In this document: piece by piece, positions 2,038-16,613 of the stretch
How positions within the stretch are numbered: position 1 is the stretch's first letter
How the letters are laid out: each line of letters begins with the position of its first letter
Origin: an archaeon
GTDB lineage: Archaea > Hydrothermarchaeota > Hydrothermarchaeia > Hydrothermarchaeales > BMS3B
Direction of reading: 5' to 3'
Length of the DNA stretch: 34,332 nucleotides
Assembly: GCA_026989875.1 (NCBI GenBank)
Contig: JALSIP010000009.1
Span: forward strand, 1 to 34,332
Notes under the pieces: generated by a model
Told to the model about the DNA's origin: nothing
Seen by the model: only the letters and a program-made list of their open reading frames with translations
Databases searched by the model: none
Position numbers and translations under genes: made by a program

Positions 2038-2353
2038 TATGTAGAATTTCTGATGCGGAGATATATATAAATTTTTTGAGCAAAAAGGTACAAAAACAAT
2101 TTGAAAATATCGGCCTTATTTTAATCTGAATTGTCCAGAAAGATTGCAAAACGTTAAGTAGTATAGTTTAAGGAATAAATCCCTCCTATTGGACCTATAC
2201 CCAAACCTGTAAACCTGTATAAACCATATCCCCACGCCTTCAGTATGGCGCCATGATAGCCTGAGCCACTCAACATAACTTTCATGCTGTAAAATTATTC
2301 CTGAAAATAAAGCATAAGTACCACTCACACCCAGATTTCTGTGGGGATGATTG

Positions 2354-3019
2354 ATGCAGGGGGTGCGCATGGACGATAACGGAGAGTTTCTGCGGGTTCT
2401 GCTGAGCATAGAATCTGAAGGCTGCGTCATCCACAGGCTTGCTGCCAGGCATCCCTGGGTTGAATTCAGGGTGGCAGAGAGGCACGTTCTCCCTGGCGGC
2501 GGAATGCTTGCAGGCATGGTTGTGCGGAGCGGTGAGGCTGTGCGGGAGTTTCTCGGTGAGCTTGCTGCCTGTGATGAGGTCAGGTTTCTTCAGCCTGTTT
2601 ACATTGCTGGCGGGTATCTCAGGCTCAGGCTGGAATTCAAGTGCGATTCCTGCGTGGTATGCAGAATAGCTGAGATGCTGCGCATCCCTCCAGAAGAAAT
2701 CTCGTGCAGCAATGGCAGAGTCGCAGCGGCGTTTATACTGAAGAACGGCGAAGAGCTGCGCACCATGGTGGCGCACCTGCGGGAGATGAGAGCAAACTTC
2801 AGGGTGCTTGAAGTCAGACGCGGATGCTTTAGCCCCCGGGAAGTGCAGCTCACCGATAGGCAGCTTGAGATTCTCAGGTATGCATACCGTGCGGGATACT
2901 TTGACCGTGACAGGAGAGTCAACCTGCAGCACATCGCCAGGCACTTCGGTCTGAGCCCTGCCACCATCGGCGTGCACATGAGGAGCGCCATCAAAAAGAT
3001 ACTTAAAAGGGTGATATAA
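2354..3019 (+). CDS. Bacterio-opsin-activator (HTH-10) type transcriptional regulator with Cys-rich N-terminal domain
   Basis: C-terminal LTDRQLEILRYAYRAGYFDRDRRVNLQHIARHFGLSPATIGVHMRSA HTH. N-terminal GC and CDSCVVC cysteines. Confidence 0.85.
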   Translation: MQGVRMDDNGEFLRVLLSIESEGCVIHRLAARHPWVEFRVAERHVLPGGGMLAGMVVRSGEAVREFLGELAACDEVRFLQPVYIAGGYLRLRLEFKCDSCVVCRIAEMLRIPPEEISCSNGRVAAAFILKNGEELRTMVAHLREMRANFRVLEVRRGCFSPREVQLTDRQLEILRYAYRAGYFDRDRRVNLQHIARHFGLSPATIGVHMRSAIKKILKRVI

Positions 3020-3028
3020 GGTGAGGAC

Positions 3029-3883
3029 ATGAGAGAGTACCTGGGGATGTTCAAGCTCCGCATAGTTGCCCTGCTCGTGTTCGTCGCTATGGTGGCTGCA
3101 GCGGTTGGCTCGGGGGGCAGCCTCCAGGTTGAGCGGCTGCTACTGCTTTTTGCAGCAGGTGCTCTTGCATCAATGGGAGCAAGCGTGCTGAACCACTATT
3201 TTGACCGGGACATAGACGCGCTTGTCCCCAGAACCAGCAACAGACCACTTCCCTCAGGCAGGATTAAGCCCAGCACCGCATGCTGGCTCGGTGTTTTGCT
3301 GGTGGGTACCTCTCTGCTCCTGTCATCACGCCTGAACTACCTCACCACCATGTACATACTTGCTGGAGCGCTGGTTTACGTTCTGGTTTATACTGTGTGG
3401 CTCAAAAGGCGCAGCGCCCTGAACATAGTCATAGGGGGTCTCGCCGGTAGCTGTGCCGTACTTGCTGGATATGCGGCAATCCGTGGCGACACCACCCTGC
3501 TCGCCCTGCTGCTTGCCCTTCTGATATTCCTGTGGACTCCGCCCCACTTCTGGGCATTTGCCATAGCCAAGAGCTCTGACTACACCAGAGCTGGAGTGCC
3601 CATGCTGCCGGTGAAGTACGGGAATGACAGAGCAGCAAAGCTGATAGTCATGCACACCGTGCTGCTGGTTCAGGCGTCCCTGCTGCTCTACGCCTTCGGC
3701 TACTTCGGCGGATTGTATCTGGTGGTGGCGGTTGTTCTGGGGGTTTTGCTGCTGGCTTTCAATCTGAAGCTGCTCGCCACCAGAAGCACAGGCTGGGCAT
3801 GGAGAAGCTACAGGTTCTCAGGTATATATCTTATAGTCCTGTTCACAGCCATACTGCTGGATGCACTATTTAAACAGGCTTAA
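3029..3883 (+). CDS. ctaB: Protoheme IX farnesyltransferase (heme O synthase)
   Basis: LNHYFDRDID..RT.NRPLPSG, YTVWLKRR, FLWTPPHFWA and DY..AGVPMLPV motifs. Confidence 0.95.
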   Translation: MREYLGMFKLRIVALLVFVAMVAAAVGSGGSLQVERLLLLFAAGALASMGASVLNHYFDRDIDALVPRTSNRPLPSGRIKPSTACWLGVLLVGTSLLLSSRLNYLTTMYILAGALVYVLVYTVWLKRRSALNIVIGGLAGSCAVLAGYAAIRGDTTLLALLLALLIFLWTPPHFWAFAIAKSSDYTRAGVPMLPVKYGNDRAAKLIVMHTVLLVQASLLLYAFGYFGGLYLVVAVVLGVLLLAFNLKLLATRSTGWAWRSYRFSGIYLIVLFTAILLDALFKQA

Positions 3884-3928
3884 TATTTTAATACAACCTT
3901 TAATTTCTATGTGTACATCCGTTAAATC

Positions 3929-4078
3929 ATGGTGGCTGATGGGGGTAATGAGGAAATTCCTTTCATGCAGAGGTTTCTGGACAACATGTGGTTGCTGCTG
4001 ATTCTGAGTTTTGCCATACTTGCGGTGTCCTACGTGGGATGGGGAATTCTGGAAGCACTTAACGTTCCCAGCAGGTGA
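3929..4078 (+). CDS. Small single-TM protein associated with the heme-copper oxidase (49 aa)
   Basis: Manual translation MVADGGNEEIPFMQRFLDNMWLLLILSFAILAVSYVGWGILEALNVPSR. First gene after an AT-rich promoter and followed by the RBS of subunit II. Confidence 0.75.
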   Translation: MVADGGNEEIPFMQRFLDNMWLLLILSFAILAVSYVGWGILEALNVPSR

Positions 4079-4091
4079 AGGAGGTGCCGGG

Positions 4092-4622
4092 ATGAGTGTC
4101 GCTCCCCCTCAGGGTGTGTGGTGGAAGGAGAGGACGCCCAGGGAGGAGAAGCTCTGGGTTGCCATAGCCTTGGTGTGGGCGATTGTGATGTTTGTGATGA
4201 TGCCCCTGTGGCACATCTACGGCAAGCAGAACCCCTCCACAGAGACCTACAGGGTTTCACCGGAAGAATATGTGAGACTCACCCAGGAGTTCATAGAGAA
4301 GTATAAGGTGGGTGAGGAGAATGGCGTTCCCGTTGTGGAGCCGCCGCCGGGGAGCGATGTGTACCTGCTGGGCAGGCAGTTCAGCTGGGAGCCCATAATC
4401 AGGCTCAAAAAGGGTGAAACTTATCGCTTACACCTATCCTCGGCTGATGTGCTCCACGGCTTCTCGGTCTATCCAATGAACATCAACTTCATGGTGATAC
4501 CCGGCTACGACTACGTGCTCACCGTGACGCCAACCCAGGCGGGAGTTTACAGCGTGGTGTGCAACGAGTACTGCGGGTTGGGGCACCAGGTAATGGTTGG
4601 AAAGATTATAGTGGTGGAGTGA
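4092..4622 (+). CDS. Heme-copper oxidase subunit II (CuA), B-family/eNOR type
   Basis: One TM helix, then DVLHGF...CNEYCGLGHQVM CuA motif. Start at ATG 4092 after GGAGGTG. Confidence 0.93.
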   Translation: MSVAPPQGVWWKERTPREEKLWVAIALVWAIVMFVMMPLWHIYGKQNPSTETYRVSPEEYVRLTQEFIEKYKVGEENGVPVVEPPPGSDVYLLGRQFSWEPIIRLKKGETYRLHLSSADVLHGFSVYPMNINFMVIPGYDYVLTVTPTQAGVYSVVCNEYCGLGHQVMVGKIIVVE

Positions 4623-4631
4623 GGTGACGAT

Positions 4632-6146
4632 ATGAGCGATGATTTCAGGACCTGCCCTGTGACGGGATTTAAGGTGCATCTGCCTGCTGAGAGGCTCATC
4701 AAGGTCAACGCAGTTACGGCGGTGGTGGCGCTTCTTGTGGGGGCGATTATGGCGCTCTTAGTGGCGCTCACCAGGTGGGAGACCGTGCACCTGCTGCGCC
4801 CCTTAGACTACTACAAGTTCTTAACCCTGCACGGCTGGAACATGCTGGGATTCTGGATAATATTCTTTGAGGTGGCAGTGCTCTACTTCGCCGGCGCTAT
4901 AATGCTCAACTCCCGTCTTGCCTCGCCGAAGCTCGGCTGGCTGGCGTATGCGCTCATGCTGGTGGGTGCTGCTGGCACTAACATTACTGTTCTCATGAAT
5001 CCAGCGAAGAACGCGATAATGTTCACCTCCTACGTGCCTCTGAAGGCAACCCCCGGCTACTACCTCTCGGTAATCCTCTTCGCCGTTGGCGCACTGCTTG
5101 CGGTTTTCAACTTCCTGGCGACGCTGTACATTGCCAGGAAGGAGAGGACCTACCGGGGCTCTCTTCCCTTAGTGGTCTTCGGCGCCCTGACGGCGGCAAT
5201 AATAGCGGTGAGCACCCTGCTCTTCGGCGCCGCTGCGCTGGTTCCCACCCTCTTCTGGTCCATGGGCATATCCCCCACCTGGGATGCACTAACCTACAGG
5301 ATAGTCTTCTGGGCTTTCGGGCACCCCTCGCAGCAGATAAACGTGGCGGCAATGATAGCAATCTGGTACCTGCTCGCCTACCTCACCGTAGGGGGCACGA
5401 CGATAAGCGAGAAGTTCTCCCGTCTTGCGTTTCTCTTCTACATCCTCTTCATCAACATCGCCTCGGCGCACCACCTGCTGGTTGACCCTGGCGTAAGCTC
5501 CGCCTGGAAGATATGGAACACCAGCTATGCCATGTACTTAGCGGTGCTTGCGAGCATGATGCACGCTTTTGCTGTGCCTGCGGCGATAGAGGTGGCGCAG
5601 CGCAGGAAGGGCTTCAACCGCGGCTTATTTGAATGGCTGTGGAAGGCACCCTGGAAGAACCCCTCCTTCTCGGCGCTCATCCTCTCAATAGTAATCTTTG
5701 GCTTCCTGGGCGGGATAAGCGGCGTGATTCAGGGCACGGAGCAGCTCAACATAAGGTTCCACAACACCCTTGCGGTGCCCGGCCACTTCCACGGCACAGT
5801 CGCAGGTGGCACAACTCTGGCGTTCATGGGCATAACCTACTACGTGCTTCCGCTGATATTCAGGCGCGAGGTTGTGGGCAAGAGCCTGGCGGTGTACCAG
5901 CCCTGGATATTCGGCATAGGCATAGCTCTGGTCTCCATAGGCATGCAGGGCGCTGGTCTATACGGTGTGCCCAGGAGGCATGCGGACATAACCAGCTTCG
6001 GCGGCTCCGTCTTTGCCTTTGACTACGACCCCACCGCCTACTTCTGGCTTTCCCTGCTGGGCATTGGCGGCATCCTCGCCTTCACCGGAGCGCTGCTATT
6101 CGTTCTAATAGCTGTTGCCACGCTGATTAAGGGAAGGAGGCTCTGA
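4632..6146 (+). CDS. Heme-copper oxidase subunit I, eNOR-type (putative nitric oxide reductase)
   Basis: All six His ligands present (LTLHG, FGHP, AHHL, GHFHG), but helix VI reads HPSQQ without the cross-linking Tyr of O2 reductases. Confidence 0.88.
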   Translation: MSDDFRTCPVTGFKVHLPAERLIKVNAVTAVVALLVGAIMALLVALTRWETVHLLRPLDYYKFLTLHGWNMLGFWIIFFEVAVLYFAGAIMLNSRLASPKLGWLAYALMLVGAAGTNITVLMNPAKNAIMFTSYVPLKATPGYYLSVILFAVGALLAVFNFLATLYIARKERTYRGSLPLVVFGALTAAIIAVSTLLFGAAALVPTLFWSMGISPTWDALTYRIVFWAFGHPSQQINVAAMIAIWYLLAYLTVGGTTISEKFSRLAFLFYILFINIASAHHLLVDPGVSSAWKIWNTSYAMYLAVLASMMHAFAVPAAIEVAQRRKGFNRGLFEWLWKAPWKNPSFSALILSIVIFGFLGGISGVIQGTEQLNIRFHNTLAVPGHFHGTVAGGTTLAFMGITYYVLPLIFRREVVGKSLAVYQPWIFGIGIALVSIGMQGAGLYGVPRRHADITSFGGSVFAFDYDPTAYFWLSLLGIGGILAFTGALLFVLIAVATLIKGRRL

Positions 6147-6148
6147 AG

Positions 6149-6268
6149 ATGGAGGAAGAGGTAAGACCGAAGGGCACTCTCGCGCTGGTGCTGCTCTTCT
6201 TCGTGGTGTTTGTGCTCTTCTACGTGGTCAACTGGATATGGCTCAGCGGTGTATGGGTGCTGAGGTAG
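6149..6268 (+). CDS. Subunit IIa-like single-helix protein (39 aa)
   Basis: Manual translation MEEEVRPKGTLALVLLFFVVFVLFYVVNWIWLSGVWVLR. The PKG-hydrophobic pattern resembles ba3 oxidase subunit IIa. Starts 2 nt after subunit I. Confidence 0.8.
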   Translation: MEEEVRPKGTLALVLLFFVVFVLFYVVNWIWLSGVWVLR

Positions 6269-6281
6269 CGGAGGAGCAGAG

Positions 6282-7541
6282 TTGAACAGCGCCCACCTCC
6301 ACCGCTGGCTCCTCTTTTCTGTTTTTTCACTTGTTTTTGCCGGCGTCTTTGCCTTCTTCGCCGCCATGGCGCGCACCCCTGCGGTCAGGCTCTTCCCTGT
6401 GGAGGAGCTCTTCAGGGTAGCGCTGGTGGTGCACGTTATCTTCGCCGTTGTCATCTGGTTTCTGGGCTTCAAGGCAGTGCTCTGGTGCTACTGCGCTGCC
6501 GGAAGGGGCTCAGCTGTCAGCCGCCTGTGGAGCTATGGACTGTATGCCGCCATCGCCGGTATGCTCATGGTGGCAGCCTCACCGCTCTTCAGCGCCAGGC
6601 CTCTGCTCATAGACTACATCCCTCTGCTGCTGCACCCCCTCTACTTCGGAGGGCTCATTCTCATTGCCCTGGGAATGAGCGCCGTTGCCCTGGCATACAT
6701 AAAGCACTCTACGGGTGTGAAGCTTGACCTGCCCTCCTACACGATGCTGCTTGCAGCCTTCGTGCTCTTCGTGACCTTCCTCAGCTTCTTCTCCTCCGCC
6801 TTTATCAACGGCACCGACTACCGCGCCCTCGTCTGGGGTCCGGGGCACATCTTCCAGGTAGCGAGCACCTTAGCGATGGCTGCTGCCTGGTTTATCCTGC
6901 TGCGGGAAACCCTGGGCAGGGACCTGGACTCCCCGCCGGTGAGGAGGCTTCTCCTCCTCTACCTTGCGGTGGCAATGCTCATGCCGGGCATCTACTTCTT
7001 CCCCCGCTCTGAGCAGTTCTGGCTGTTCACCCGGGCGATGATGTACGGGATAGCTCTTCCGAGCGTCTTCGTGGGGCTTCTGGTGCTCAGAGCCCTGGCG
7101 GAGCAGCCATCGCTGGAGCTGCGCAACCCTGAGGTGGCATCCTTAGTGTATTCCTCAGTTCTCTTCGGCACCGGCGGTGCCATGGGTTTCTTTGCCACGA
7201 GTGCTGACCTGCGCGTTCCGGCTCACTACCACGGTGTGCTCGGCGCGGTAACCCTCGCCTTTATGGGTGCCACCTACCTGCTCCTGAGGAAGCTGGACAT
7301 ACCCTACAGCCGCCGTGCTGCCATGCTCCAGCCCCACCTCTACGGAGCGGGTCTGCTGCTTATAATCTCAGGCCTCTTCTGGGCTGGGATGCAGAGCGCC
7401 CCTCGCAAGACGGTTGAGTATGCGGACTCTGCCACCAGACTTGCCATGAACCTCATGGGACTCGGCTCTGTTGTGGCGGTGGTGGGCGGCGCCGCCTTCG
7501 TGGGCGTTGTGCTCCTGGCGCTGCTCAGGGCTGGCAGGTGA
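6282..7541 (+). CDS. Divergent heme-copper oxidase subunit I-like membrane protein lacking the CuB His-His pair
   Basis: VVHVIF, WGPGHIFQ and VPAHYHG..GAVTLAFMG retained. No HH motif. 419 aa. Confidence 0.8.
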   Translation: MNSAHLHRWLLFSVFSLVFAGVFAFFAAMARTPAVRLFPVEELFRVALVVHVIFAVVIWFLGFKAVLWCYCAAGRGSAVSRLWSYGLYAAIAGMLMVAASPLFSARPLLIDYIPLLLHPLYFGGLILIALGMSAVALAYIKHSTGVKLDLPSYTMLLAAFVLFVTFLSFFSSAFINGTDYRALVWGPGHIFQVASTLAMAAAWFILLRETLGRDLDSPPVRRLLLLYLAVAMLMPGIYFFPRSEQFWLFTRAMMYGIALPSVFVGLLVLRALAEQPSLELRNPEVASLVYSSVLFGTGGAMGFFATSADLRVPAHYHGVLGAVTLAFMGATYLLLRKLDIPYSRRAAMLQPHLYGAGLLLIISGLFWAGMQSAPRKTVEYADSATRLAMNLMGLGSVVAVVGGAAFVGVVLLALLRAGR

Positions 7542-7878
7542 AGTTTATCGCATCCATGGGGCAGGCGTCTATGCAGGCTCTGCAGGGCTTCTCCGCATCG
7601 GGGTTTCTAACCCTCTCGCACCTGTTCATGTCCACCTCTACTGCAACACCCTCCCCTATGCGCATCACCATCCCCTCACCGCTTTCCCCCTTACCCCCTC
7701 CCACACCGCCCCTGAGGGCGTTCACGGGGCATGCAACCACGCAGTTGCCGCAGCCGTTGCACAGCTCTTCCAGCACCACCATCTTTATCCTCCTCTCCCC
7801 CCGCAGCACGGGCAGCAGCTTCAGGAGGAGCAGCAGGAAGAAGGCGGACAGCAGCAGGGCTACCGGCGTGGCATCCAT
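7525..7878 (-). CDS. Membrane-anchored 2x[4Fe-4S] ferredoxin
   Basis: N-terminal TM helix; CNGCGNCVVACP and C...CRACIDACP motifs. Confidence 0.85.
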   Translation of the reverse strand: MDATPVALLLSAFFLLLLLKLLPVLRGERRIKMVVLEELCNGCGNCVVACPVNALRGGVGGGKGESGEGMVMRIGEGVAVEVDMNRCERVRNPDAEKPCRACIDACPMDAINFTCQP

Positions 7879-9771
7879 TTACCCATCACCCAGGTGGAAC
7901 CTGCCCTTCTCAAATTTCAGGATGACCACCCTGCTCCTTTCAAACCTCACCCTCTCCACCAGTCTGTACCTGAATTCACCCTCCGCAGAGTCCCTTATTC
8001 TGACCTCTAAGGTGTGCTCTCCCGGCTCAACTTCTATTCTCTCGTAGGCATAGCTGGGCCCATCCCTCCACAGCCCCGAGGGCTGATAGCTCTTCCTGAG
8101 CACAGTTCTGCCATCTATCGCTAACACCACCTCCACTGGGGAGCGCTCCCTGGGGCAGGGAGTCAGGTTGCCAGCTCTGAGCTCCTCCACAGTTGGCTCC
8201 CTGCAGGGCACCAGCCGCTCCCCCGGGTGGCTCATGGTGAAGAGGAGCATCGCTTTATCTGCCTGCATCAGGGAGTAGGCGGGGGATGTGGAGAAGTAGC
8301 TCAGAGGTAGCGTGAAGAGGAGCAGCAGCATAAGTATGAGGTGCGGTGCTGGCTTCTCCCTGTCACACTTTCCTTCCTCCAGAGCGGATATGAGTTTCTT
8401 TTCTTCACCCGGCATTAGCCAGCACAACCTCACCCGACCCGCTTCAGGATGCTTCAGCACGGGAGCTCGTCTTCCAGATAGCCTGTCCTCTGTCCATAGG
8501 TTACCGAAGCGGTACCTGCAGTCTCCGTGTTTGCATCCCGCGATGACGAGCTTATTCACACCAGCATCAAGGGCATCCGCAACAGCCAAGGGATGAAGCA
8601 TCCCAATGCAGCGCAGGCTGAGCACCTTCACATTACTCTGCATGAGTCTGTCTGCTGCCTTACCACCCAGGCAGTGCCTGCAGATGACCACCAGAGTCTT
8701 ATCCCTCTCAGCCAGCGATTTTACCTCTTTCCTGAGCAATTCAAGCTCCGTATCTCCAAACTCTACAGCGTTGAAACTGCAGGAGCCGACGCATATCCCG
8801 CAGCCTGCACATCTGCTCCCTGATACGCTGGCGACCTTCTTTTCGCCATCTTTAAGCATACTTATAGCACCGTACGGACAGTCAGCATAACACAGCTCAC
8901 ATCCGGTGCAGGTTTCTCTACGAATTCTGGCGCTGAGCCATTCTTTCTGAAGTAGCCTGGGCACCGCAAGCAGGAATGCGGTGATGGCTATCAGCAGGAG
9001 CCAGCTCAGGCGTGGATGGCTCTGCATCAGCGGCAGGGGTAGCATGTAATACCAGTCCACAGGCACTTTGACCGGGATATCGTATGGCGTGGCTGGTGGA
9101 GCGCTGATTGCTGGCTTGAGCAGCGATAGGGTCAGCAGCACCGCCAGAAGCAGCACTGCAACACGCTCCGGTGGAAGCAACCTGACGCCGGATAGTCTGG
9201 AGAAATGAAGCAGCAGAAGTACTGATGAGAACAGGGGGAGTGCAAGATGAGTGAAAACCACCGCAAAGAAAAGCAGACTGGTCAGACTTTCTTCACCGGC
9301 AACCGACATGGCGAGGGGTTTTGGAAATACCGGGAGCTCATCCAGAAATTCAGTTATGCCAAGCGCCACAAGCTGCGCACGCTGATCCCACACCATCCAG
9401 TAGCCTGTGAGACCCTCTATCAGTACAGCACCAAATAAAAGAACCCCCGAGACCCACACCAGCCACCTGCTCTGCAGCAGCCTCCTGGTTATGAGGGTTC
9501 TGATACCGTGAAGAATAAGAACAATTATGAGGGCATCTGCAGAATACCTGTGAATACTGCGCATAATCCCGGCTATACGGTCTTCAGTTATATTATTTAC
9601 AGAGATGTATGCGTTCTGCGCGTTTATACTGTAAAAAGGCAGCACGTAAATGCCGCTAATTGCGGTTAACAGCAGCAGGAATATGGCAATCTGCCCCAGA
9701 TGCATAAAGGGGTTGTATCTGGATGTGAAGGCACGGTTTACCAGCAGCTCCATTCTGGAAAACAGGGTCAT
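7879..9771 (-). CDS. Fusion protein: cytochrome b / 2x[4Fe-4S] ferredoxin / MvhD(FlpD)-like domain / extra TM and C-terminal domain
   Basis: Cyt b His pairs (SIHRY..ILHG; FTHL..LLHF), TGYWMVWDQ, PVDWYY. CTGCELCYADCP and CAGCGICVGSC. MvhD motifs LRCIG..HP and GCKHGDCRYRFGN. Confidence 0.88.
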   Translation of the reverse strand: MTLFSRMELLVNRAFTSRYNPFMHLGQIAIFLLLLTAISGIYVLPFYSINAQNAYISVNNITEDRIAGIMRSIHRYSADALIIVLILHGIRTLITRRLLQSRWLVWVSGVLLFGAVLIEGLTGYWMVWDQRAQLVALGITEFLDELPVFPKPLAMSVAGEESLTSLLFFAVVFTHLALPLFSSVLLLLHFSRLSGVRLLPPERVAVLLLAVLLTLSLLKPAISAPPATPYDIPVKVPVDWYYMLPLPLMQSHPRLSWLLLIAITAFLLAVPRLLQKEWLSARIRRETCTGCELCYADCPYGAISMLKDGEKKVASVSGSRCAGCGICVGSCSFNAVEFGDTELELLRKEVKSLAERDKTLVVICRHCLGGKAADRLMQSNVKVLSLRCIGMLHPLAVADALDAGVNKLVIAGCKHGDCRYRFGNLWTEDRLSGRRAPVLKHPEAGRVRLCWLMPGEEKKLISALEEGKCDREKPAPHLILMLLLLFTLPLSYFSTSPAYSLMQADKAMLLFTMSHPGERLVPCREPTVEELRAGNLTPCPRERSPVEVVLAIDGRTVLRKSYQPSGLWRDGPSYAYERIEVEPGEHTLEVRIRDSAEGEFRYRLVERVRFERSRVVILKFEKGRFHLGDG

Positions 9772-10055
9772 TACATGTATAATGTGCTCTCCGCGGGGTA
9801 ATAACTTTCTGCGAACATGTTACCATCGGACTTTTAACTGCCTGATAAGGCGATAACACCCCATGCCCCCCGGGCATGAGCATCCCAAGCCCGTGTTAGT
9901 CTGCTGTGGTGCCATCGGATGTGCATTATTGTGCAATTTCACGTGCATTATTTGTCCAATCCCTGGCGGTTGTGCAGTTATATGCTCATTCAATGCCGAT
10001 AAAAAACTTTTTATAGGATGAGGTTCTACTGTAGAAGGTGCATGAGAGGACACGG

Positions 10056-10103
10056 GCAGTTTAAATACCAGTCCCGGAGGCAGTACGGGAAGGTTGGAGG
10101 TGA
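10056..10103 (+). promoter_or_regulatory. TATA box (TTTAAATA) and GGAGGTGA RBS of the Mo-enzyme operon
   Basis: TTTAAATA at ~10059-10066; GGAGGTGA at 10096-10103 in front of GTG 10109. Confidence 0.55.
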
Positions 10104-10108
10104 AAGCT

Positions 10109-12604
10109 GTGGTAGTGTTGAGACGGATTTCGGAGTCCGTTAAGGACTACGACACCATCAGGTACACCACCTGCGACAACATGTGCGAGAGCGGCTGTGG
10201 AATGAAGGTGTACCTGAAGGATGGCAGAATAGTTGACATCTGGGGTGACGATGAGCACCCGCAGAACTACGGCTCCCTTTGCCCGAAGGGAACCGCAAAC
10301 TACCAGCATGTGTACAACCCCCTCAGGGCAAAATACCCCGTGATCAGGGAGGACAACGTTAACGGGAAGTTCAGGCGTGTAACCTGGGATGATGCGCTTG
10401 ACTTTGTTGCCGAGCGCCTGAAGTACATACGTGAGAAGTGGGGTGCCCACACCGTAGCCTGCCACCGCACAGGAAGGAGCAGCTACGGTAACAAGCTGGG
10501 TGGCTCCAGGTTCCTTGCCATGTACGGCACGCCCAACATCTACGGCCAGGGACCGCTCTGCTGCGAGTCCCCCGGAGCGAGGGGTCAGTACGTATTCGGT
10601 GCCAAGGAGTTTCTCCGCTTGATGAACCCCTGTCAGGATGCGATGAACAGCGACACCGTGTTCATCGCAGGTGCAAATGCAGCGGCGCTGGAAGTAATCA
10701 CCATGAAGTGGTTCATAGAGGCGCAGGAGCGCAATGGCGCCAAGATGATAGTCATAGACCCGCGCTTCAATGCCACGATGGCAAAGGCAGACCTGGCGCT
10801 GCGCCTCAGACCAACCACCGACGCCTACCTGGCGAACTCCTTGGCGCACGTGCTCATCTACGAGATAGATGGCATAGACAAGGAGTTCATAGCCAAGTGG
10901 ACGGTTGGCTTTGACAAGTATGCAGAGCTTGTCAAGGACTACACCCCTGAGAAGGCTGAGAACATCACCTGGGTTCCGGCTGAGGACATACGCAAGGCAG
11001 CCGAGTGGATAGCCTATCCCAGGAGGACGCACTTCACGGGCTGCTTAGGTACCGCGCAGCAGTACAATGCCGGCAACGGCAATGCCGCCTACCAGATACT
11101 GGTGGCGATCACAGGAAACGTGGGTGTTAAGGGTGGTGGCTGGAACTGGCTGCACAACTGCAGACCTGTGCTGAGCGCCGGCAAGGACCTGAAGGAGTAC
11201 GTGGCTAAGATAAAGGAGCCGCAGCTCTCTGACAAGATCATACCCTGGGGCGACACCTCAAGCGCCTGCACCATAAATCCTGGATACACCGGCAAGCCCT
11301 ACCCGGTGAAGGGGCTGATATGGAACGGCAACCACATAGTGCAGTGGCCCAACAACAACAAGGTGAGGGAGTACATGAAGAACCTGTACTGCGGTGTGCA
11401 CCTGAGCTTCCATCCCAACGAGACCATGAGCTGGATGCATGCAGCATTTCCGATAACCAGCTTCTTTGAGCACGAGGGCGTGGTGCACCACGGCAACAAC
11501 CGCCACGTGCAGTGGCACAACCAGATTATTGAGAGGCAGTGGGAGTGCAGGGCAGACATAGACTTCTGGGCAGGTCTGGCGAAGCGCTTTGAGTTCGCCG
11601 AGGCTTACTATGCGCCCGACGGTAAGAGCTGGTGGGCGAAGAAGGACGTCTTCGGCAACCCGCTGCCCGAGGACCCGAAGTACCCCGGCACCACCCACGA
11701 GATTGATGAGCGTGTCTGCCAGAACTGGTTCCACTCCCAGGAGCCCTTTGTGGCTGGCATAACCGCCGACCTCATGGACCCGGAGATGTCCCCCAAGGGC
11801 GGTGTGATGTGGCCTGCTGAAACCAAGGACGAGGCTATGATGTACTCCGACCCCGAGGCGACCATAAGAGGTGCCCAGTGGATAATGTACAAGGAGGGCG
11901 TCAACTACCCCGGCACCGACAAGCGCTTCCCCACACCCAGCGGCAAGGTGGAGATATACAGCAGGGCGCTGGAGCAGATAGGCTGGTATCCCATGCCCAT
12001 ACACATAGAGCCCAACAACGCACCAGTTGCGAGACCAGACCTGTGGGAGAAGTACCCGCTCATCCTGTGCACGGGTCGCTTGGTTGCGCACTTCCACGAG
12101 ATGGGTCACTGGTGGCCCTGGATGGTTGAGCTGGAGCCCCACAGATTCATCAACATCCACACCGACTTAGCCAAGGAGCTGGGCATACGCGACGGCGACA
12201 CCGTGGTCTGCGAGAACGACTACGGCAAGGTCATAGGTCCCGCCTGGGTCAATGAGATGGTTGACGTAGCCGAGGTCTGGGGACCAGAGGGCTTTGACAA
12301 GTACCAGCCCTTCTATCCCTACAGCAACATTAACGAGCTCGTGGATGACACCGTGAAGGACCCCTTCTACACGCAGGCGCAGTACAAGTGCAACCTCGTG
12401 CGTGTGTATCGCCTGGGCGATGACCCGGATAAGGCTGTGGAGAAGACCAAGGAGTTCTTAGCTAAGCACAAGCGCACACCCAAGGACTACCTGGACCCGG
12501 AGAAGGAGCCGAGCGTCAACCTGGGTACCTACACCAGACTCACCCAGGAGGGCAGCGGCATCTACTACGTAGGGGTGCCGCGTGAGAAGTGGGAGACCAA
12601 GTGA
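10109..12604 (+). CDS. Mo/W-bisPGD (DMSO reductase family) oxidoreductase, catalytic subunit, substrate unknown
   Basis: CDNMCESGC...GSLCPKG Fe-S motif; VIDPR, TPSGKVEI and LILCTGR..HFH motifs; candidate Cys ligand in GPLCCES. No Tat signal. Start set at GTG 10109. Confidence 0.92.
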   Translation: MVVLRRISESVKDYDTIRYTTCDNMCESGCGMKVYLKDGRIVDIWGDDEHPQNYGSLCPKGTANYQHVYNPLRAKYPVIREDNVNGKFRRVTWDDALDFVAERLKYIREKWGAHTVACHRTGRSSYGNKLGGSRFLAMYGTPNIYGQGPLCCESPGARGQYVFGAKEFLRLMNPCQDAMNSDTVFIAGANAAALEVITMKWFIEAQERNGAKMIVIDPRFNATMAKADLALRLRPTTDAYLANSLAHVLIYEIDGIDKEFIAKWTVGFDKYAELVKDYTPEKAENITWVPAEDIRKAAEWIAYPRRTHFTGCLGTAQQYNAGNGNAAYQILVAITGNVGVKGGGWNWLHNCRPVLSAGKDLKEYVAKIKEPQLSDKIIPWGDTSSACTINPGYTGKPYPVKGLIWNGNHIVQWPNNNKVREYMKNLYCGVHLSFHPNETMSWMHAAFPITSFFEHEGVVHHGNNRHVQWHNQIIERQWECRADIDFWAGLAKRFEFAEAYYAPDGKSWWAKKDVFGNPLPEDPKYPGTTHEIDERVCQNWFHSQEPFVAGITADLMDPEMSPKGGVMWPAETKDEAMMYSDPEATIRGAQWIMYKEGVNYPGTDKRFPTPSGKVEIYSRALEQIGWYPMPIHIEPNNAPVARPDLWEKYPLILCTGRLVAHFHEMGHWWPWMVELEPHRFINIHTDLAKELGIRDGDTVVCENDYGKVIGPAWVNEMVDVAEVWGPEGFDKYQPFYPYSNINELVDDTVKDPFYTQAQYKCNLVRVYRLGDDPDKAVEKTKEFLAKHKRTPKDYLDPEKEPSVNLGTYTRLTQEGSGIYYVGVPREKWETK

Positions 12605-12614
12605 GGTGGTGGAG

Positions 12615-13400
12615 ATGGATGAGGTCTTCTCAGACAAGGGCTACTGCCTCAACCTGGACCAGGAGACAGCACGCTCTGCCATGGAGCGCATAGAGAAGAT
12701 CGGGCTCAGAGAGGCGCAGGCTGCCAGTGTCTGGGGTATACCCCCAGACCACATTGCCATGTTCGTTGACCTGAAGCGCTGCATAGGCTGCTTCGCCTGC
12801 GAGACTGCCTGCAAGCTTGAGCATGACGACCCCATGGGTCCACGAAGGATGCGCGTGATTCAGGTGGGACCGAAGAAGGTGGGCAGGCACACCAAGGCGA
12901 TGTACATACCCATGAACTGCTTCATGTGCGGTCACGCCGCCTGCGTTGAGGCATGCCCCACCGGGGCGATGACCAAGCGCTCCAAGGACGGCATAGTGTT
13001 TGTGGACAGCGAGAAGTGCATAGGCTGCAAGCGCTGCATGCAGGCGTGCCCCTTCGGCGCACCACAGTACGACTCAAGGACGGGCAAGGTTATAAAGTGC
13101 GACTACTGCATGCACCGCATTGACCAGGGGCTGCAGCCTGCCTGCGTGACCAAGTGCTCCACTCACGCCCTCTACATCGGCAACCCTGCTGACATAATGA
13201 CCTACTTCCGTGAGAAAGACGCCATACGTCTGGCAAGAGTTTACTTTGACGACAGGGCAGACACCGACCTGCTGACCTCACCTGCCTACGCATTCCCGGA
13301 GCGGGCGCTCTTCATACCCAGAGTGCGCCTGAAGCCTGGCAAGCTTCCGGAGCGTGTCACAGAGGTTACAAAGCCCGTCTACAAGAAGGAGCAGCAGTAG
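12615..13400 (+). CDS. Four-cluster Fe-S subunit (DmsB/NrfC-like) 1
   Basis: CIGCFACETAC, CFMC...CVEACP, CIGCKRCMQACP, KCDYC...ACVTKC. Start at ATG 12615 after GAGGTGG. Confidence 0.92.
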   Translation: MDEVFSDKGYCLNLDQETARSAMERIEKIGLREAQAASVWGIPPDHIAMFVDLKRCIGCFACETACKLEHDDPMGPRRMRVIQVGPKKVGRHTKAMYIPMNCFMCGHAACVEACPTGAMTKRSKDGIVFVDSEKCIGCKRCMQACPFGAPQYDSRTGKVIKCDYCMHRIDQGLQPACVTKCSTHALYIGNPADIMTYFREKDAIRLARVYFDDRADTDLLTSPAYAFPERALFIPRVRLKPGKLPERVTEVTKPVYKKEQQ

Positions 13401-13429
13401 GGGCTCATCCCCCTACCCTTTTGATTTTT
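13400..13429 (+). terminator. Possible terminator after Fe-S subunit 1
   Basis: GGGG-CTCAT-CCCC hairpin followed by a pyrimidine/T tract (CCCTTTTGATTTTT). Confidence 0.4.
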
Positions 13430-13443
13430 CAGGAGGATAAGAG

Positions 13444-13677
13444 GTGGCAAAGCCCAAGGGTTACCGGGGAGAGCTTGATGATGCTCTCAGGCAGGCGCTT
13501 GAGGGCGTGGTGCCTGAAAATCTTAAAAAGAGAGTCATGAAGAATCCTGACTGGATTTATGTGCTCACGATTATCAGGGAGATGAGAGCCCGTGAGCTCG
13601 GCAGCTACTACTTCGGCAGCGATGTTATGGTTTCTCCATGCTGCCCCATGCCAGAGCGTCTGGGCTATGAGGATTAA
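13444..13677 (+). CDS. Small hypothetical protein (77 aa) with SPCCPMP motif
   Basis: GGAGG RBS, GTG start, inside the Mo-enzyme cluster. Confidence 0.7.
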   Translation: MAKPKGYRGELDDALRQALEGVVPENLKKRVMKNPDWIYVLTIIREMRARELGSYYFGSDVMVSPCCPMPERLGYED

Positions 13678-13692
13678 CAGGAGGTCCTGGAA

Positions 13693-14505
13693 ATGCAGGT
13701 TCAGATATCTGAGCCCTTCAGGGAGGATGTGGTGCTGAAGGAGCCAAGGGACGGGGATGTGGTCATGCTCATTGACCTGAAGCGCTGCATAGGCTGCTTC
13801 TCCTGCGAAACCTCCTGCAAGCTGGAGCACGAGCTCGGCATGGGTCCCAGGCTGATAAGGGTGATTCAGGTGGGACCCAGGGAGGTGAGGGGCAGGATCA
13901 GAACCCTCTACATACCCATGCCCTGCTTCCACTGCTCACCAGCCGCCTGCGTTGAGGCATGCCCCACGGGAGCGATGCAGAAGCGCTCCAAGGACGGCAT
14001 AGTGTTTGTGGACAGCGAGAAGTGCATAGGCTGCAAGCGCTGCATGCAGGCGTGCCCCTTCGGCGCACCACAGTACGACTCAAGGACGGGCAGGGTTGTG
14101 AAGTGCAACTTCTGCATGCAGCGGGTTGACTACCGCAGAACCTACACCCGTGAGGAGCTTGAGAAGATATACCGGCACGTGCCCCAGAAGAGAATCTACC
14201 TGCCTGTTCATGACGAGGTGGGCAACATAAAGCGGGACAGCAAGGGCAGGCTGGTGGATGAGAAGGGTGAGCCGCTCTCCGGAAGAAAGCTCGCCGAGGC
14301 TGGTGAGATGCCAGAAAGCCTGAGCTACTCGGGGCTGTGGAGCGCCTGCGCCACCAAGTGCTCCACCGAGGCTATGACCTTCGGCTACTACAGGGACGTC
14401 AAAAAGCTCATAGAGCAGAAGGCAGAGAACAGGCAGATACACCGGGTGGGCAGCGTCTTCTATGCCCTGCCCCCTGAGGACTTTCCGCTTCCGCGCTCCA
14501 AGTAG
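13693..14505 (+). CDS. Four-cluster Fe-S subunit (DmsB/NrfC-like) 2, with a long insertion
   Basis: Same Cys motifs as subunit 1. Long insertion between KCNFC and ACATKC. GGAGGT RBS. Confidence 0.9.
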   Translation: MQVQISEPFREDVVLKEPRDGDVVMLIDLKRCIGCFSCETSCKLEHELGMGPRLIRVIQVGPREVRGRIRTLYIPMPCFHCSPAACVEACPTGAMQKRSKDGIVFVDSEKCIGCKRCMQACPFGAPQYDSRTGRVVKCNFCMQRVDYRRTYTREELEKIYRHVPQKRIYLPVHDEVGNIKRDSKGRLVDEKGEPLSGRKLAEAGEMPESLSYSGLWSACATKCSTEAMTFGYYRDVKKLIEQKAENRQIHRVGSVFYALPPEDFPLPRSK

Positions 14506-14557
14506 CGCGGACCTACAGTTTTATTTTCAATTGTTTCCTTAAAGCATCTGAGTAGAG

Positions 14558-15634
14558 GTGTTCAGCTTGCCGGAGTCTTCGGTGTTTGAGGAGAACAGGT
14601 ATGTTAAGTGGTTCATAGACCCTGAGCTGGCAAAGGACTGGAAGAACCTGCTAAAGAAGTACCCCTATCTCTTCTGGATACAGTCAATGAACGTGCGTGA
14701 CAGGAAGCAGTGGGCGGTGCTGGTGAGGAAGTACTCACCCGAGCTGCGCCCGCCGGTGAAGGTGCACGGAGCTGAGAGCTATGCCGAGCTCAGCGTTGCC
14801 AGAAGAGATGCCTGGTTCCAGCTTTTCAGATGCCTCACCGAGGTGTCCCTGAACCTTGTCAGGGAGTTTCAGAGCGGTGAGTTCGCGGATAAGCTGAGAT
14901 GCAGCTTCGGCAGGCTGCTTGGAGAGAGGGAGGTGGAGACGTACCTGGAGCAGCTTGAGCGTGTTAGGCTGGAATTTGAACACCTCCGTGCCGAGAAGCT
15001 GCAGCGGGAGCTTGAGGCAGAGCGCTTCACCATATTTGACGATGACCTGATGCCGTACCTGTCAGCCCACGAGTCGGTGTACAGGAGTGAGAAGCAGCTC
15101 ATGGGCGACCTGACAGCGCAGGTTAAGGAGCTTTACCGGCGTGCCGGCTATGTGGTTGACAAGTCCAGAGGGAACCTGCCCCCGGATGAGGCAAAGCTTG
15201 AGGTGGAGTTTGCATATCGCCTGATAGAGGATGAGATTCAGGCGTGGAGAAGGGGGGAGAATGAGAGAGCCATGGAGCTTCTTCAGCTTCAGAGGGAGTT
15301 CATCCAGCAGCACGCTGCGCTCTGGCTTCCCTACATGTTCGCAGACCTGGCAAGCAGGGAGTTCAGAATAGGGATAGCCAGGAAGTACCACGGGGATGTG
15401 CGGGATGAGGAGCTCTACGCCCGTGAGGGTGCGGTGGTGGAGATGGACTTTCTTCAGGTTATAGCGGGGCTGGGCAGGATGCTGGTGGAGCAGGAGTACC
15501 TGCAGGTTGAGGAGATGCTGCAGGCTGCAGGCAAGATTTCTGCAGGGGAGCTTGCAGCCGCCTTCAGCGGGGTTGTGCCGCTCCCGACTGCGGGCGAAAA
15601 CACCTACCTGCTGAGGGCAGGGCAAAATGCTTGA
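14558..15634 (+). CDS. TorD/DmsD-family molybdoenzyme maturation chaperone with N-terminal extension
   Basis: PYLSAHESVY...LYRRAG...PPDEAKLEVEF...QREFIQQHAALW pattern. Located next to the Mo enzyme. Confidence 0.8.
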   Translation: MFSLPESSVFEENRYVKWFIDPELAKDWKNLLKKYPYLFWIQSMNVRDRKQWAVLVRKYSPELRPPVKVHGAESYAELSVARRDAWFQLFRCLTEVSLNLVREFQSGEFADKLRCSFGRLLGEREVETYLEQLERVRLEFEHLRAEKLQRELEAERFTIFDDDLMPYLSAHESVYRSEKQLMGDLTAQVKELYRRAGYVVDKSRGNLPPDEAKLEVEFAYRLIEDEIQAWRRGENERAMELLQLQREFIQQHAALWLPYMFADLASREFRIGIARKYHGDVRDEELYAREGAVVEMDFLQVIAGLGRMLVEQEYLQVEEMLQAAGKISAGELAAAFSGVVPLPTAGENTYLLRAGQNA

Positions 15635-16613
15635 GAAGGTGTATGAGGAGCTGGCTCTCAAGCGCATGCAGCTCAGGCAGAGGTTTGAGGAGTGGGCGGA
15701 GAGGGGGCGCATTGAGAGGTTTGCCTCAGGCTGGCGCAGCTTTGCTCCCGAGCCTGTGCACGAACCCTGTGCGGGGGTGGACGGCAGCTTCAACTGCTGC
15801 CAGTACAGGAGCGCCGTGCTTTATGCGGTGAATGCCTGCGCATGTGTGCATGCAGGCGGGAAGCTCACGGAGCACCCCCGTGCCGAGGTTGACCTGCTCC
15901 CGCCTGCCTTTGCCAAGGAAATACTGGAGCTGCGCATGGCAAGGATGGAGCTTCAGTGCGCCCTTGATGCGGCTGAAGAGGTGGAGCTGGTGATGCTTGA
16001 CGGCTCCCTGCACAGCGCCCTCTCAGCCCCCAGAAACTGGTGGCGCTTCATCCCCGTCAGAAGGGCGGAGGAGCTGGCTGAGCAGGTGGAGCGGGATGGG
16101 CTGCATCTGCACGGGACTGAGAGCGACGAGGAGCGGCTCCTCTTGGAGTACATAGCCTACCTCCAGACGCTGCAGGAGCTGCTGGAGCGGGCGGGTGTTG
16201 AGAAGCTGGTTTGCATCTCCAAGAGCTCCACAGAAAGCACCCTCCTGAAGGGCGTCCCGGACCAGGCTGTGTATGAGGCGCTGTCCACCTCTCCGGGATA
16301 TTCACGCCCCCGGGAGAAGCTGCTGCACCACAGGTTCCCGGTGCACGAGCAGCTCTTCAGGAGCATAGTGTTCACCACCTTCTACGCCAGACTGGAGCCC
16401 GGCAGAGCCGTGCTCAGGGTGGAGCTGCCCAGGGAGGCGGATGAGGCTGAGCTCAGGAGGCTGCTGCGCATGCTCTCCTCGATGTGCGTGGAGGGCTATC
16501 CGTACCTGCTGAGGAAGGCTCACGCCAGGGTTGTGGTCACCAAGGGGGACATGGCAATGGTTTCGGCGGCTGTTGGAATAACCGAGAGAACGGGCAGGGA
16601 GGTGCTGGGATGA
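15627..16613 (+). CDS. nurA: DNA double-strand break repair nuclease NurA
   Basis: AGVDGS, LVMLDGSL, CISKSS and GYPYLLRKAH motifs. Confidence 0.92.
   Translation: MLEKVYEELALKRMQLRQRFEEWAERGRIERFASGWRSFAPEPVHEPCAGVDGSFNCCQYRSAVLYAVNACACVHAGGKLTEHPRAEVDLLPPAFAKEILELRMARMELQCALDAAEEVELVMLDGSLHSALSAPRNWWRFIPVRRAEELAEQVERDGLHLHGTESDEERLLLEYIAYLQTLQELLERAGVEKLVCISKSSTESTLLKGVPDQAVYEALSTSPGYSRPREKLLHHRFPVHEQLFRSIVFTTFYARLEPGRAVLRVELPREADEAELRRLLRMLSSMCVEGYPYLLRKAHARVVVTKGDMAMVSAAVGITERTGREVLG

Follow-up and report, generated by a model that had tools for sequence, protein, structure and literature searches.

A 34,332-nucleotide stretch of DNA (contig JALSIP010000009.1, here C9, referred to below as the window), which belongs to a 1.44-Mb, 99.96% complete genome of the archaeal phylum Hydrothermarchaeota (G000), contains between 2351 and 15634 what are probably two independent units. 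Unit A (2351-9771) is the gene cluster of an eNOR-type nitric oxide (NO) reductase together with a dedicated companion, a fusion protein in which a cytochrome b is joined to two [4Fe-4S] clusters and an MvhD domain, and unit B (10094-15634) is a self-contained cassette for a molybdenum or tungsten (Mo/W) enzyme. The fusion is a near-obligate companion of eNOR and is not a link to the Mo/W enzyme. On the forward strand, unit A reads regulator, ctaB, CuA-bearing subunit II, subunit I and a haem-copper oxidase paralogue, and a two-gene operon of the fusion and a membrane ferredoxin converges on them from the reverse strand; the fusion gene and the gene for the Mo/W alpha subunit are divergent and lie 322 bp apart. 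The first-pass annotation had read positions 2354-15634 as one undescribed archaeal respiratory module. The listing of open reading frames (ORFs) and the family scans recover every gene that it named (the regulator, ctaB, the Tyr-less oxidase, the paralogue, the fusion, the membrane ferredoxin and the Mo/W operon), and its statement that nitrite reductase, Rieske protein and cytochrome c are all missing from the window holds; the nitrite reductase NirS is encoded elsewhere in the genome, on contig C34. The labels "undescribed" and "archaeal" go too far, since most occurrences of the eNOR-fusion module are bacterial and it already appears in one preprint, on Ferrigenium straubiae (bioRxiv 10.64898/2026.01.22.701106; this preprint, PMC11214002 and PMC8756737 are cited throughout from their accessible parts).

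A scan with the fusion protein, limited to one genome per species, yields 76 loci, four of which are archaeal; the others are from Gamma-, Alpha-, Beta- and "Delta"-proteobacteria, Chloroflexi and Gemmatimonadota. A relative of Magnetospirillum (L075) is one of the organisms with the fusion. A gene for subunit I (at least 250 bits) lies no more than 8.4 kb from the fusion gene in 54 of the 76 loci, at a median distance of 2 kb. Of these 54 pairs, 47 are on the same strand and 48 carry the GH-x-x-QQ motif, and among the 22 unpaired loci, 17 have less than 5 kb of sequence on at least one side. The usual bacterial order is subunit II, subunit I, ctaB, sco1 and the fusion, often followed by a hemerythrin gene. 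The reverse test uses metagenome loci picked by alignment to eNOR subunit I alone, independently of the fusion. Where the downstream sequence extends for 3 kb or more, the fusion gene follows on the same strand in every case (37 of 37 loci), and likewise where it extends for 5 kb or more (27 of 27). Among the 25 loci flanked by 3 kb or more on each side, the fusion is present in 25, sco1 in 23, ctaB in 17, hemerythrin in 14, nirS in 12, the paralogue in eight and ctaA in three.

The same association is observed within the phylum, where the fusion occurs in seven of 38 genomes (G000, G004, G008, G009, G010, G024 and G025) and an orthologue of eNOR subunit I in six of these seven, the exception being G024. 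The two genes are on one contig in G000, G004, G009 and G010, and G008 and G025 have a piece of each gene on a shared contig. The earlier grouping of the fusion with eNOR is thus upheld by co-occurrence across archaea and many bacterial lineages. Additionally, according to the Ferrigenium preprint, the cytochrome b-[Fe-S] proteins are detected by proteomics when conditions are denitrifying. For the window itself, two DNA sequencing runs and no RNA run were found to contain the stretch.

Several observations weigh against so strict a pairing and separation of units. Five well-flanked fusion loci (L071, L077, L079, L080 and L081) have no eNOR-type subunit I; L077 carries a Tyr-bearing oxidase instead, and L079 the paralogue only. 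The metagenome sample comprises the best 80 of at least 570 matches, which are 56-67% identical to the eNOR of the window, so that more distant eNORs lie outside it. The 322-bp divergent spacing could also allow local co-regulation of the fusion and the Mo/W operon in this genus.

The closest solved relative of subunit I is the ba3 oxidase of Thermus (E 2e-45). The alignment places "GHPSQQ" of subunit I against "GHPIVY" of ba3, which indicates that the cross-linked Tyr237 is replaced by Gln, and Gln occupies this column in the window sequence and in all five other aligned eNOR subunit I sequences. The stretch "LASMMH" supplies Ser and His at the positions of ba3 S309 and T312, and "IWY" supplies Tyr at that of Y248. 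The ligands for both haems and the active-site metal are kept (the His of GHP, the HH pair in SAHHLL, GHFHG and LTLHGW). In an alignment of 28 subunit II sequences, the CuA ligands (H122, C157, C161, H165 and M168) and Glu19 are shared by all 28. Homologues begin at residue 28 of the query, so the start of subunit II is likely M28 at 4092. In Dataset S1 of PMC11214002, the eNOR column lists Q, S, H and Y at the positions of ba3 Y237 (Q-245), S309, T312 and Y248 in addition to the subunit II Glu, and Gln is given as the diagnostic eNOR residue in PMC8756737 (section 2.7.1). As the Gln, Ser, His, Tyr and subunit II Glu of the window match these published residues, the haem-copper enzyme is, by its residues, of the eNOR type; every marker tested is present, in agreement with the first-pass annotation.

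In the tree of subunit I, the window sequence groups with sequences carrying the QQ motif, including those of Magnetospirillaceae and Gallionellaceae loci, in a tree with no reference sequence from Rhodothermus (R.) marinus, a single outgroup and an unreliable root. The archaeal sequences lie outside a large Pseudomonadota clade; with a very long branch to the outgroup and unsettled forks at the base, the tree indicates neither a donor nor a direction of transfer. The R. marinus enzyme is the only eNOR that has been assayed, and it reduces NO and not O2 (Murali et al., PNAS 2024; PMC11214002, section 6). It shares with the window enzyme a B-family-derived subunit I, the replacement of Tyr by Gln, the Ser/His/Tyr channel, a CuA-bearing subunit II with the entrance Glu, and ctaB (PMC11214002). 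The differences are that the window host is archaeal, that CtaA (PF02628) is undetected in G000, a weak absence as the control search missed Sulfolobus, and that the activity of the window enzyme is predicted.

The N-terminal part of the regulator resembles DmsR_N, with 25.7 bits against a Pfam cut-off of 27, and homologues of the regulator (186-187 bits, HTH_10) likewise adjoin ctaB in two related loci (L010 and L011). The paralogue downstream of subunit I retains the helix-II haem His, one active-site His and an "AHYHG" pair; in place of the HH pair, archaeal and bacterial members alike have IY, FF or YY. The protein that the first-pass annotation called a CuB-less paralogue is therefore present, with two of its three CuB/FeB His residues gone and one kept. 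Homologues occur in at least 24 of the 76 fusion loci. The Ferrigenium preprint describes an "eNOR scaffold protein of unknown function", which may be the counterpart of the window paralogue. Two more stand-alone COX1-like ORFs are found in G000 among housekeeping genes, at C25:1471-2670 (399 residues) and C42:5639-6811 (390 residues), and each matches COX1 in three separate stretches, best around profile positions 333-397.

The fusion protein consists, from the N-terminus, of a cytochrome b with six transmembrane (TM) helices and two b haems, two [4Fe-4S] clusters, an MvhD [2Fe-2S] domain, a seventh TM helix and an outer beta-sandwich. Hydropathy predicts the six helices, 204 cytoplasmic residues, the seventh helix and 134 residues outside. 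In alignments of 23 and 36 full-length members, the ligands of the two b haems (H74, H88, H175 and H189) are invariant. A D-W-(Y/F)-Y motif on the loop between TM5 and TM6 occupies the position of PEWY in bc-type cytochromes b; D239 never varies in either alignment, and W240 and Y242 show no variation in one of them and at least 90% conservation in the second. The ligands of the two [4Fe-4S] clusters are C288, C291, C294, C298, C321, C324, C327 and C331, and the Cys residues of the MvhD domain (C364, C388, C413 and C418; PF02662, 46 bits) are invariant or at least 90% conserved. The AlphaFold (AF2) model has a mean predicted local distance difference test score (pLDDT) of 88.7 and a predicted template modelling score of 0.85, and its top Foldseek matches are the cytochrome b of bc1 complexes (E 3e-8 over approximately 300 columns).

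The outer domain, when folded alone (pLDDT 89.5), forms an eight-strand beta sandwich without conserved metal ligands. Searches of the PDB (Foldseek and VIA-align wide) return generic beta-sandwich matches only, the best being the luminal domain of HGSNAT (Z 8.4), and no cupredoxin-, Rieske- or copper-chaperone-like match stands out among them; no Pfam family covers the domain, and the ESM Atlas gives unnamed clusters only. In approximately 27 loci, many of them from Pseudomonadota (for example, L025 and L026), the TM helix and beta sandwich form a separate ORF of approximately 170-190 residues, overlapping the cytochrome b-Fe-S gene at its end, and in the ESM Atlas this outer module is also fused to other Fer4/FlpD architectures. 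The membrane ferredoxin encoded directly downstream of the fusion has homologues in only two of the 76 loci (L009 and L012).

A second form of the fusion, in which Fer2, FAD_binding_6 and NAD_binding_1 replace the two [4Fe-4S] clusters and MvhD, is present in 13 of 120 loci (for example, L062:5643-7604), mostly alongside the MvhD form. The cytoplasmic end of the wire would therefore be tied to pyridine nucleotides in those organisms. In the Ferrigenium straubiae eNOR operon, a cytochrome b with an Fe-S protein and a second form with FAD/NADH domains are likewise described, and both Ferrigenium forms also occur in the Gallionellaceae locus L062. The preprint calls these cytochrome b-Fe-S proteins "rather unusual", whereas they are near-universal in the eNOR loci sampled here; the MvhD domain, the outer C-terminal module and archaeal occurrence were not seen in its accessible part.

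The fusion of the window is 70% identical to that of a congener (L009, genome G004) and 64% identical to that of another genus (L012, genome G008). Its outer domain (7879-8283), on the other hand, is 94% identical to L012 versus 70% to L009, and the paralogue scores 750 bits against L012 versus 516 bits against L009. These mosaic identities suggest recombination inside the cluster.

A comparison with the cytochrome b of bc1 and b6f complexes reveals the same fold, a four-His two-haem core and a PEWY-like motif in the E-F loop, and the GYW..WDQ motif of the fusion presumably corresponds to GYVLPWGQ of bc-type cytochrome b. The differences are that G000 has no Rieske protein and that the fusion has six TM helices, against eight in bc1 and b6f. 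There is no sign of a Qi-type cycle, as the fusion runs at its n-side end into the Fe-S domains. A precedent for a bc-type cytochrome b that cooperates with a haem-copper enzyme in the absence of a Rieske subunit is SoxC of the Sulfolobus SoxABCD quinol oxidase; this protein is not extended by Fe-S or MvhD domains, and SoxA lacks CuA. The match of the fusion to SoxC is weak (NF041076, 26.7 bits), and subunit II of the window keeps CuA.

No Rieske protein is found in G000 (PF00355; the genome is nearly complete, and the control search is positive in 10 of 14 genomes), and no Rieske gene was noticed among the recurrent neighbours of the fusion loci. With a single family model for each, neither a cupredoxin (PF00127) nor Sco1 is detected in G000, and the cytochrome c domain PF13442 occurs only within NirS and beside another oxidase on contig C51. 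With no Rieske protein, no PF00127 match and few PF13442 matches, no bc complex can feed eNOR in this organism. We tentatively propose that the fusion acts as a Rieske-less, Q-cycle-like partner of eNOR, in which a quinol site is wired through the two b haems to the cytoplasmic Fe-S clusters. Quinol would be oxidised at an outer Qo-like site; one electron would pass toward the CuA site of eNOR and the other across the two b haems to the cytoplasmic clusters, where a carrier would be reduced, for example ferredoxin, or NAD(P)+ in the FNR-type variant. We infer this electron flow from ligands, genomic coupling and predicted topology. The quinol-site model is favoured because it uses every conserved feature and fits the idea put forward in the Ferrigenium preprint.

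The following points speak against a quinol-oxidising role. The purified R. marinus eNOR reduces NO in vitro with N,N,N',N'-tetramethyl-p-phenylenediamine and ascorbate, and only A-type haem is described for it (PMC11214002, section 6), which indicates that the fusion is dispensable for catalysis and does not obviously co-purify; no mention of a cytochrome b partner was found in the accessible part of that paper. There is no evident high-potential acceptor for the first electron, and the outer domain has no conserved metal ligands and generic beta-sandwich matches of Z 8.4 at most. An alternative quinol-to-periplasm route is possible in G000, where a multihaem cytochrome c (234 residues), a four-cluster Fe-S protein (323 residues) and the only NrfD of the genome (425 residues) are encoded in a row at C115:3444-6404. 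In bacteria, the fusion gene stands among the assembly genes ctaB and sco1, which would also fit maturation. Finally, the direction of electron flow and the physical contact with eNOR are predictions.

A stronger form of the proposal, which appears doubtful at present, is that eNOR and the fusion together constitute a Rieske-less bifurcating quinol:NO oxidoreductase, in which the very high potential of NO reduction would pull one electron from quinol on the outside and the other, of low potential, would pass through the two b haems and the cytoplasmic Fe-S clusters to ferredoxin, or to NAD(P)+ in the FNR-type variant, without spending proton-motive force.

The opposite direction of flow is also considered, in which ferredoxin, a flavoprotein resembling HdrA or, in the FNR-type variant, NAD(P)H would act as reductant in the cytoplasm and deliver electrons through the Fe-S clusters and the two b haems to CuA, with no quinol involved. 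Such electron export is unlikely but has several features of the fusion on its side. The C-terminus of HdrA2 contains the same wire, two [4Fe-4S] clusters followed by an MvhD [2Fe-2S] cluster, for transfer between subunits (NF040770, 97 bits), and such a wire is combined with a membrane cytochrome b in Qmo (QmoC/QmoB). In the window, by contrast, the wire is fused to a bc-type rather than an HdrE/NarI-type cytochrome b, and the polypeptide contains no flavoprotein. The variant with Fer2, FAD_binding_6 and NAD_binding_1 presumably has the layout of flavocytochrome electron exporters (NADPH oxidases and MsrQ), and the lack of matches to Rieske proteins, PF00127 cupredoxins and free PF13442 cytochromes c in G000 also speaks for it. 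However, three outer-loop residues (the invariant D239 as well as W240 and Y242) and the GYW..WDQ motif point to a retained quinol site. Export would presumably also forfeit the charge separation given by a quinol donor, and the contact between haem bL and CuA on which it depends is hypothetical.

It is rather improbable that the fusion is a maturation factor, which would give or remove electrons during the assembly of eNOR (modification of haem O/A, or insertion of FeB or CuA). The bacterial order, with the fusion after ctaB and sco1, the activity of the purified R. marinus enzyme without the fusion (PMC11214002) and the lack of a CtaA match in G000 are consistent with this explanation. Nevertheless, the CtaA absence is weak for the reason given above, the fusion is more constant in the metagenome loci (25 of 25) than sco1, ctaB or ctaA (23, 17 and three), and a transmembrane wire of two haems and three clusters with a quinol motif is elaborate for a chaperone.

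The genome contains a source of NO: a cd1 NirS of 585 residues (Cytochrom_D1, 424 bits) is encoded on contig C34. NirS and the eNOR cluster would give the organism a route from nitrite through NO to N2O. Two relatives that belong to a different genus carry nirS within the eNOR cluster itself, flanked by ctaB and the subunit II gene (L010:16003-17673 and L011:11825-13516); the corresponding gap in G000 is 128 bp, counted to the TTG at 4011. Within the phylum, NirS is present in G000, G005, G008, G009, G010 and G025, five of which also have eNOR and the fusion, and the bacterial loci include nirS in 10, nnrS in eight and napA in four cases. A search with the nos_propeller profile gave no match even in control genomes and is thus uninformative on NosZ. 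That the enzyme instead serves NO detoxification, or acts on another substrate, is quite improbable. The function is assigned from family markers, and the origin of nitrite is unclear, as no NarG is found in G000 (TIGR01580, 30.7-38 bits against a cut-off of 1084), both of which would leave room for a non-respiratory role. All tested eNOR markers are present, however, the single assayed eNOR acts on NO and not on O2 (PMC11214002), and NirS is encoded in this genome and clustered with eNOR in relatives.

Unit B encodes a Mo/W alpha subunit, two four-cluster beta subunits and a maturation chaperone, in addition to a small ORF between the beta genes that was missed in the earlier gene list. The alpha subunit has an N-terminal [4Fe-4S] motif and a Cys that aligns with the metal ligand of Psr and FdhF. 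No twin-arginine signal is seen by reading in alpha, beta1 or beta2, and neither the window operon nor 10 related loci contain a membrane ORF; the absence of a twin-arginine signal and of an NrfD/DmsC anchor, and the divergence from the fusion gene, are as previously described. The best solved relatives of alpha are the polysulfide/thiosulfate reductase PsrA and the cytoplasmic FdhF-type formate dehydrogenases. The Mo/W enzyme shares with them the N-terminal [4Fe-4S] cluster, the position of the Cys ligand and a four-cluster beta subunit, and it differs in the lack of a twin-arginine signal and NrfD anchor, in a Glu in place of the formate dehydrogenase His, in having two beta subunits and the small ORF, and in forming its own clade. 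This clade comprises approximately 30 clusters at 47% identity or more, followed by a drop to 37%, and none of them is specifically named; no NCBIfam model reaches its cut-off with alpha. The enzyme probably exchanges electrons with soluble ferredoxin-type carriers.

Three assignments of alpha were rejected. A formate dehydrogenase is not supported because the catalytic His is Glu in the alignment with FdhF, the catalytic pair aligns to Ala-Arg in the alignment with FdhH, and TIGR01591 gives 293 bits against a cut-off of 666. NarG is dismissed on the TIGR01580 scores given above. An exported reductase of the Psr/Phs/Ttr/Dms type is inconsistent with the missing twin-arginine signal and anchor, and the only NrfD of the genome belongs to the separate C115 module.

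Orthologues of alpha (77-100% identity) are present in 19 of the 38 genomes of the phylum, and 12 of these 19 lack both eNOR and the fusion. In 11 related loci, the order alpha, beta1, small ORF, beta2 and chaperone is kept where the contig allows (one contig ends within beta1), sometimes with a cupin gene after the operon, and the divergent neighbours are mobA and moeA in nine of the 11. The Mo operon and the fusion map to separate contigs in G008, G009 and G010, and the 5.8-10 kb upstream of the fusion in these genomes contain no Mo enzyme, with sco1 and a winged-helix regulator among the genes present. None of the 76 fusion loci in genomes contains an orthologue of the window alpha, the sole matches being NapA in four loci at 21-23% identity, and an alpha-like match of 60 bits or more is likewise missing from all 25 metagenome loci that are flanked by 3 kb or more on each side. 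Adjacency of the Mo/W operon and the fusion is limited to genus g1, that is, to G000 and to G004, whose contig C56 ends within the first approximately 26 codons of alpha. Unit B would have become the neighbour of unit A by a rearrangement seen only in this genus.

The first-pass annotation had suggested that the fusion could be the missing membrane link of the Mo/W enzyme, through which substrate oxidation would be connected with the quinone pool or with the reduction of NO. The divergent adjacency in G000, the overlap at the contig end in G004 (L009) and the cytoplasmic Fe-S clusters of both partners could be cited for it. It is hardly credible in view of the many alpha orthologues without fusion and eNOR, the separate contigs, the usual mobA and moeA neighbours and the lack of alpha orthologues in the fusion loci; the pattern that the first-pass annotation had itself named as refuting it, Mo-enzyme homologues that do not co-occur with the eNOR and cytochrome b genes in other genomes, is largely what is observed.

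Features of the two units are listed below.

Table. Predicted features of units A and B, with positions in the window and the basis of each assignment
Feature	Position	Strand	Basis
Cys-rich HTH_10 regulator	2351..3019	+	Pfam HTH_10, 66 bits; Cys-richness by reading
ctaB, haem O synthase	3029..3883	+	UbiA, 196 bits; TIGR01473, 263 bits (cut-off 210)
eNOR subunit II, CuA site	4092..4622 (ORF from TTG at 4011)	+	COX2 domain
eNOR subunit I, catalytic (predicted)	4632..6146	+	COX1, 232 bits
Haem-copper oxidase paralogue without two of three CuB/FeB histidines	6282..7541	+	COX1, 54 bits
Membrane-anchored 2x[4Fe-4S] ferredoxin, 117 residues, one TM helix	7525..7878	-	Fer4 families; directly downstream of the fusion
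Cytochrome b-2x[4Fe-4S]-MvhD fusion, 630 residues	7879..9771	-	Pfam Cytochrome_B, Fer4, FlpD
Mo/W-bis(pyranopterin guanine dinucleotide) oxidoreductase alpha, cytoplasmic, Cys-ligated (predicted)	10094..12604	+	Molybdop_Fe4S4, Molybdopterin, Molydop_binding
Four-cluster Fe-S subunit beta1	12582..13400	+	Fer4_11, 88 bits; kept in the operon of other genomes
Small conserved ORF between beta1 and beta2	13444..13677	+	Cluster c2 in 10 loci including the window; no Pfam match
Four-cluster Fe-S subunit beta2, tandem paralogue of beta1	13693..14505	+	Fer4_11, 75 bits; core 75% identical to beta1
NarJ/TorD-type maturation chaperone	14558..15634	+	Nitrate_red_del, 67 bits; conserved at the operon end

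Additional observations concern the Mo/W genes and the flanks of the region. The alpha subunits of G000 and G004 are 100% identical, and those of genus g3 are 96-97% identical to it; in the same genomes, the fusion is 59-70% and eNOR subunit I 93-95% identical, so that their rates differ widely from that of alpha. A paralogous Mo/W enzyme is encoded on contig C24 of G000 (L140, 5058-11938), with an alpha subunit of 39.5% identity and a beta subunit at the contig end, and it adjoins moeA, a moaA-like radical SAM gene and a split molybdopterin protein without the Fe4S4 domain. Directly after the Mo/W operon of the window is a NurA-HerA pair (15627-18085), with an eight-base overlap between NurA and the end of the chaperone gene; this pair is not kept beside the operon in other genomes. 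At the other side, the segment 1-3000 is low in GC (0.39 versus approximately 0.60 elsewhere) and may be foreign DNA at the contig end. It holds an ORF of 283 residues on the reverse strand (1186-2037) that weakly resembles, with scores below threshold, the CAP12/Pycsar TIR domain and nucleoside 2-deoxyribosyltransferase, and that has weak PADLOC matches (E 0.0017 or worse).

The eNOR family itself is already known, and it is reportedly common in nature, with 2,709 metagenome sequences and 547 GTDB genome sequences (Table 1 of PMC11214002). In a literature search that did not extend to subscription journals and supplements, the Ferrigenium preprint was the only account found of the pairing of eNOR with the fusion, and a search on Hydrothermarchaeota with NO reductase found nothing relevant. 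What is new is that the eNOR-fusion module occurs in Hydrothermarchaeota, where the genome that carries it here has no Rieske protein, that the module is co-distributed with NirS, and that a coupling to the Mo/W enzyme is rejected.

The product of eNOR is the greenhouse gas N2O, and the accessible part of the published account does not state its natural electron donor. The fusion, a transmembrane protein with five cofactors, is an obvious candidate, and it could donate the electrons, act in maturation or serve in energy coupling. The module is also present in an archaeal phylum without a Rieske/bc complex, and it is not to be confused with the adjoining Mo/W enzyme, the cassette of which is itself strongly conserved, with alpha 77-100% identical across the phylum. 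If the bifurcating scheme is true, it would be a new way for denitrifiers to gain low-potential reductant. Fixation of CO2 by the Wood-Ljungdahl pathway has been published for other members of the phylum, and bifurcation could serve this archaeon as well, should it fix CO2 by that pathway.

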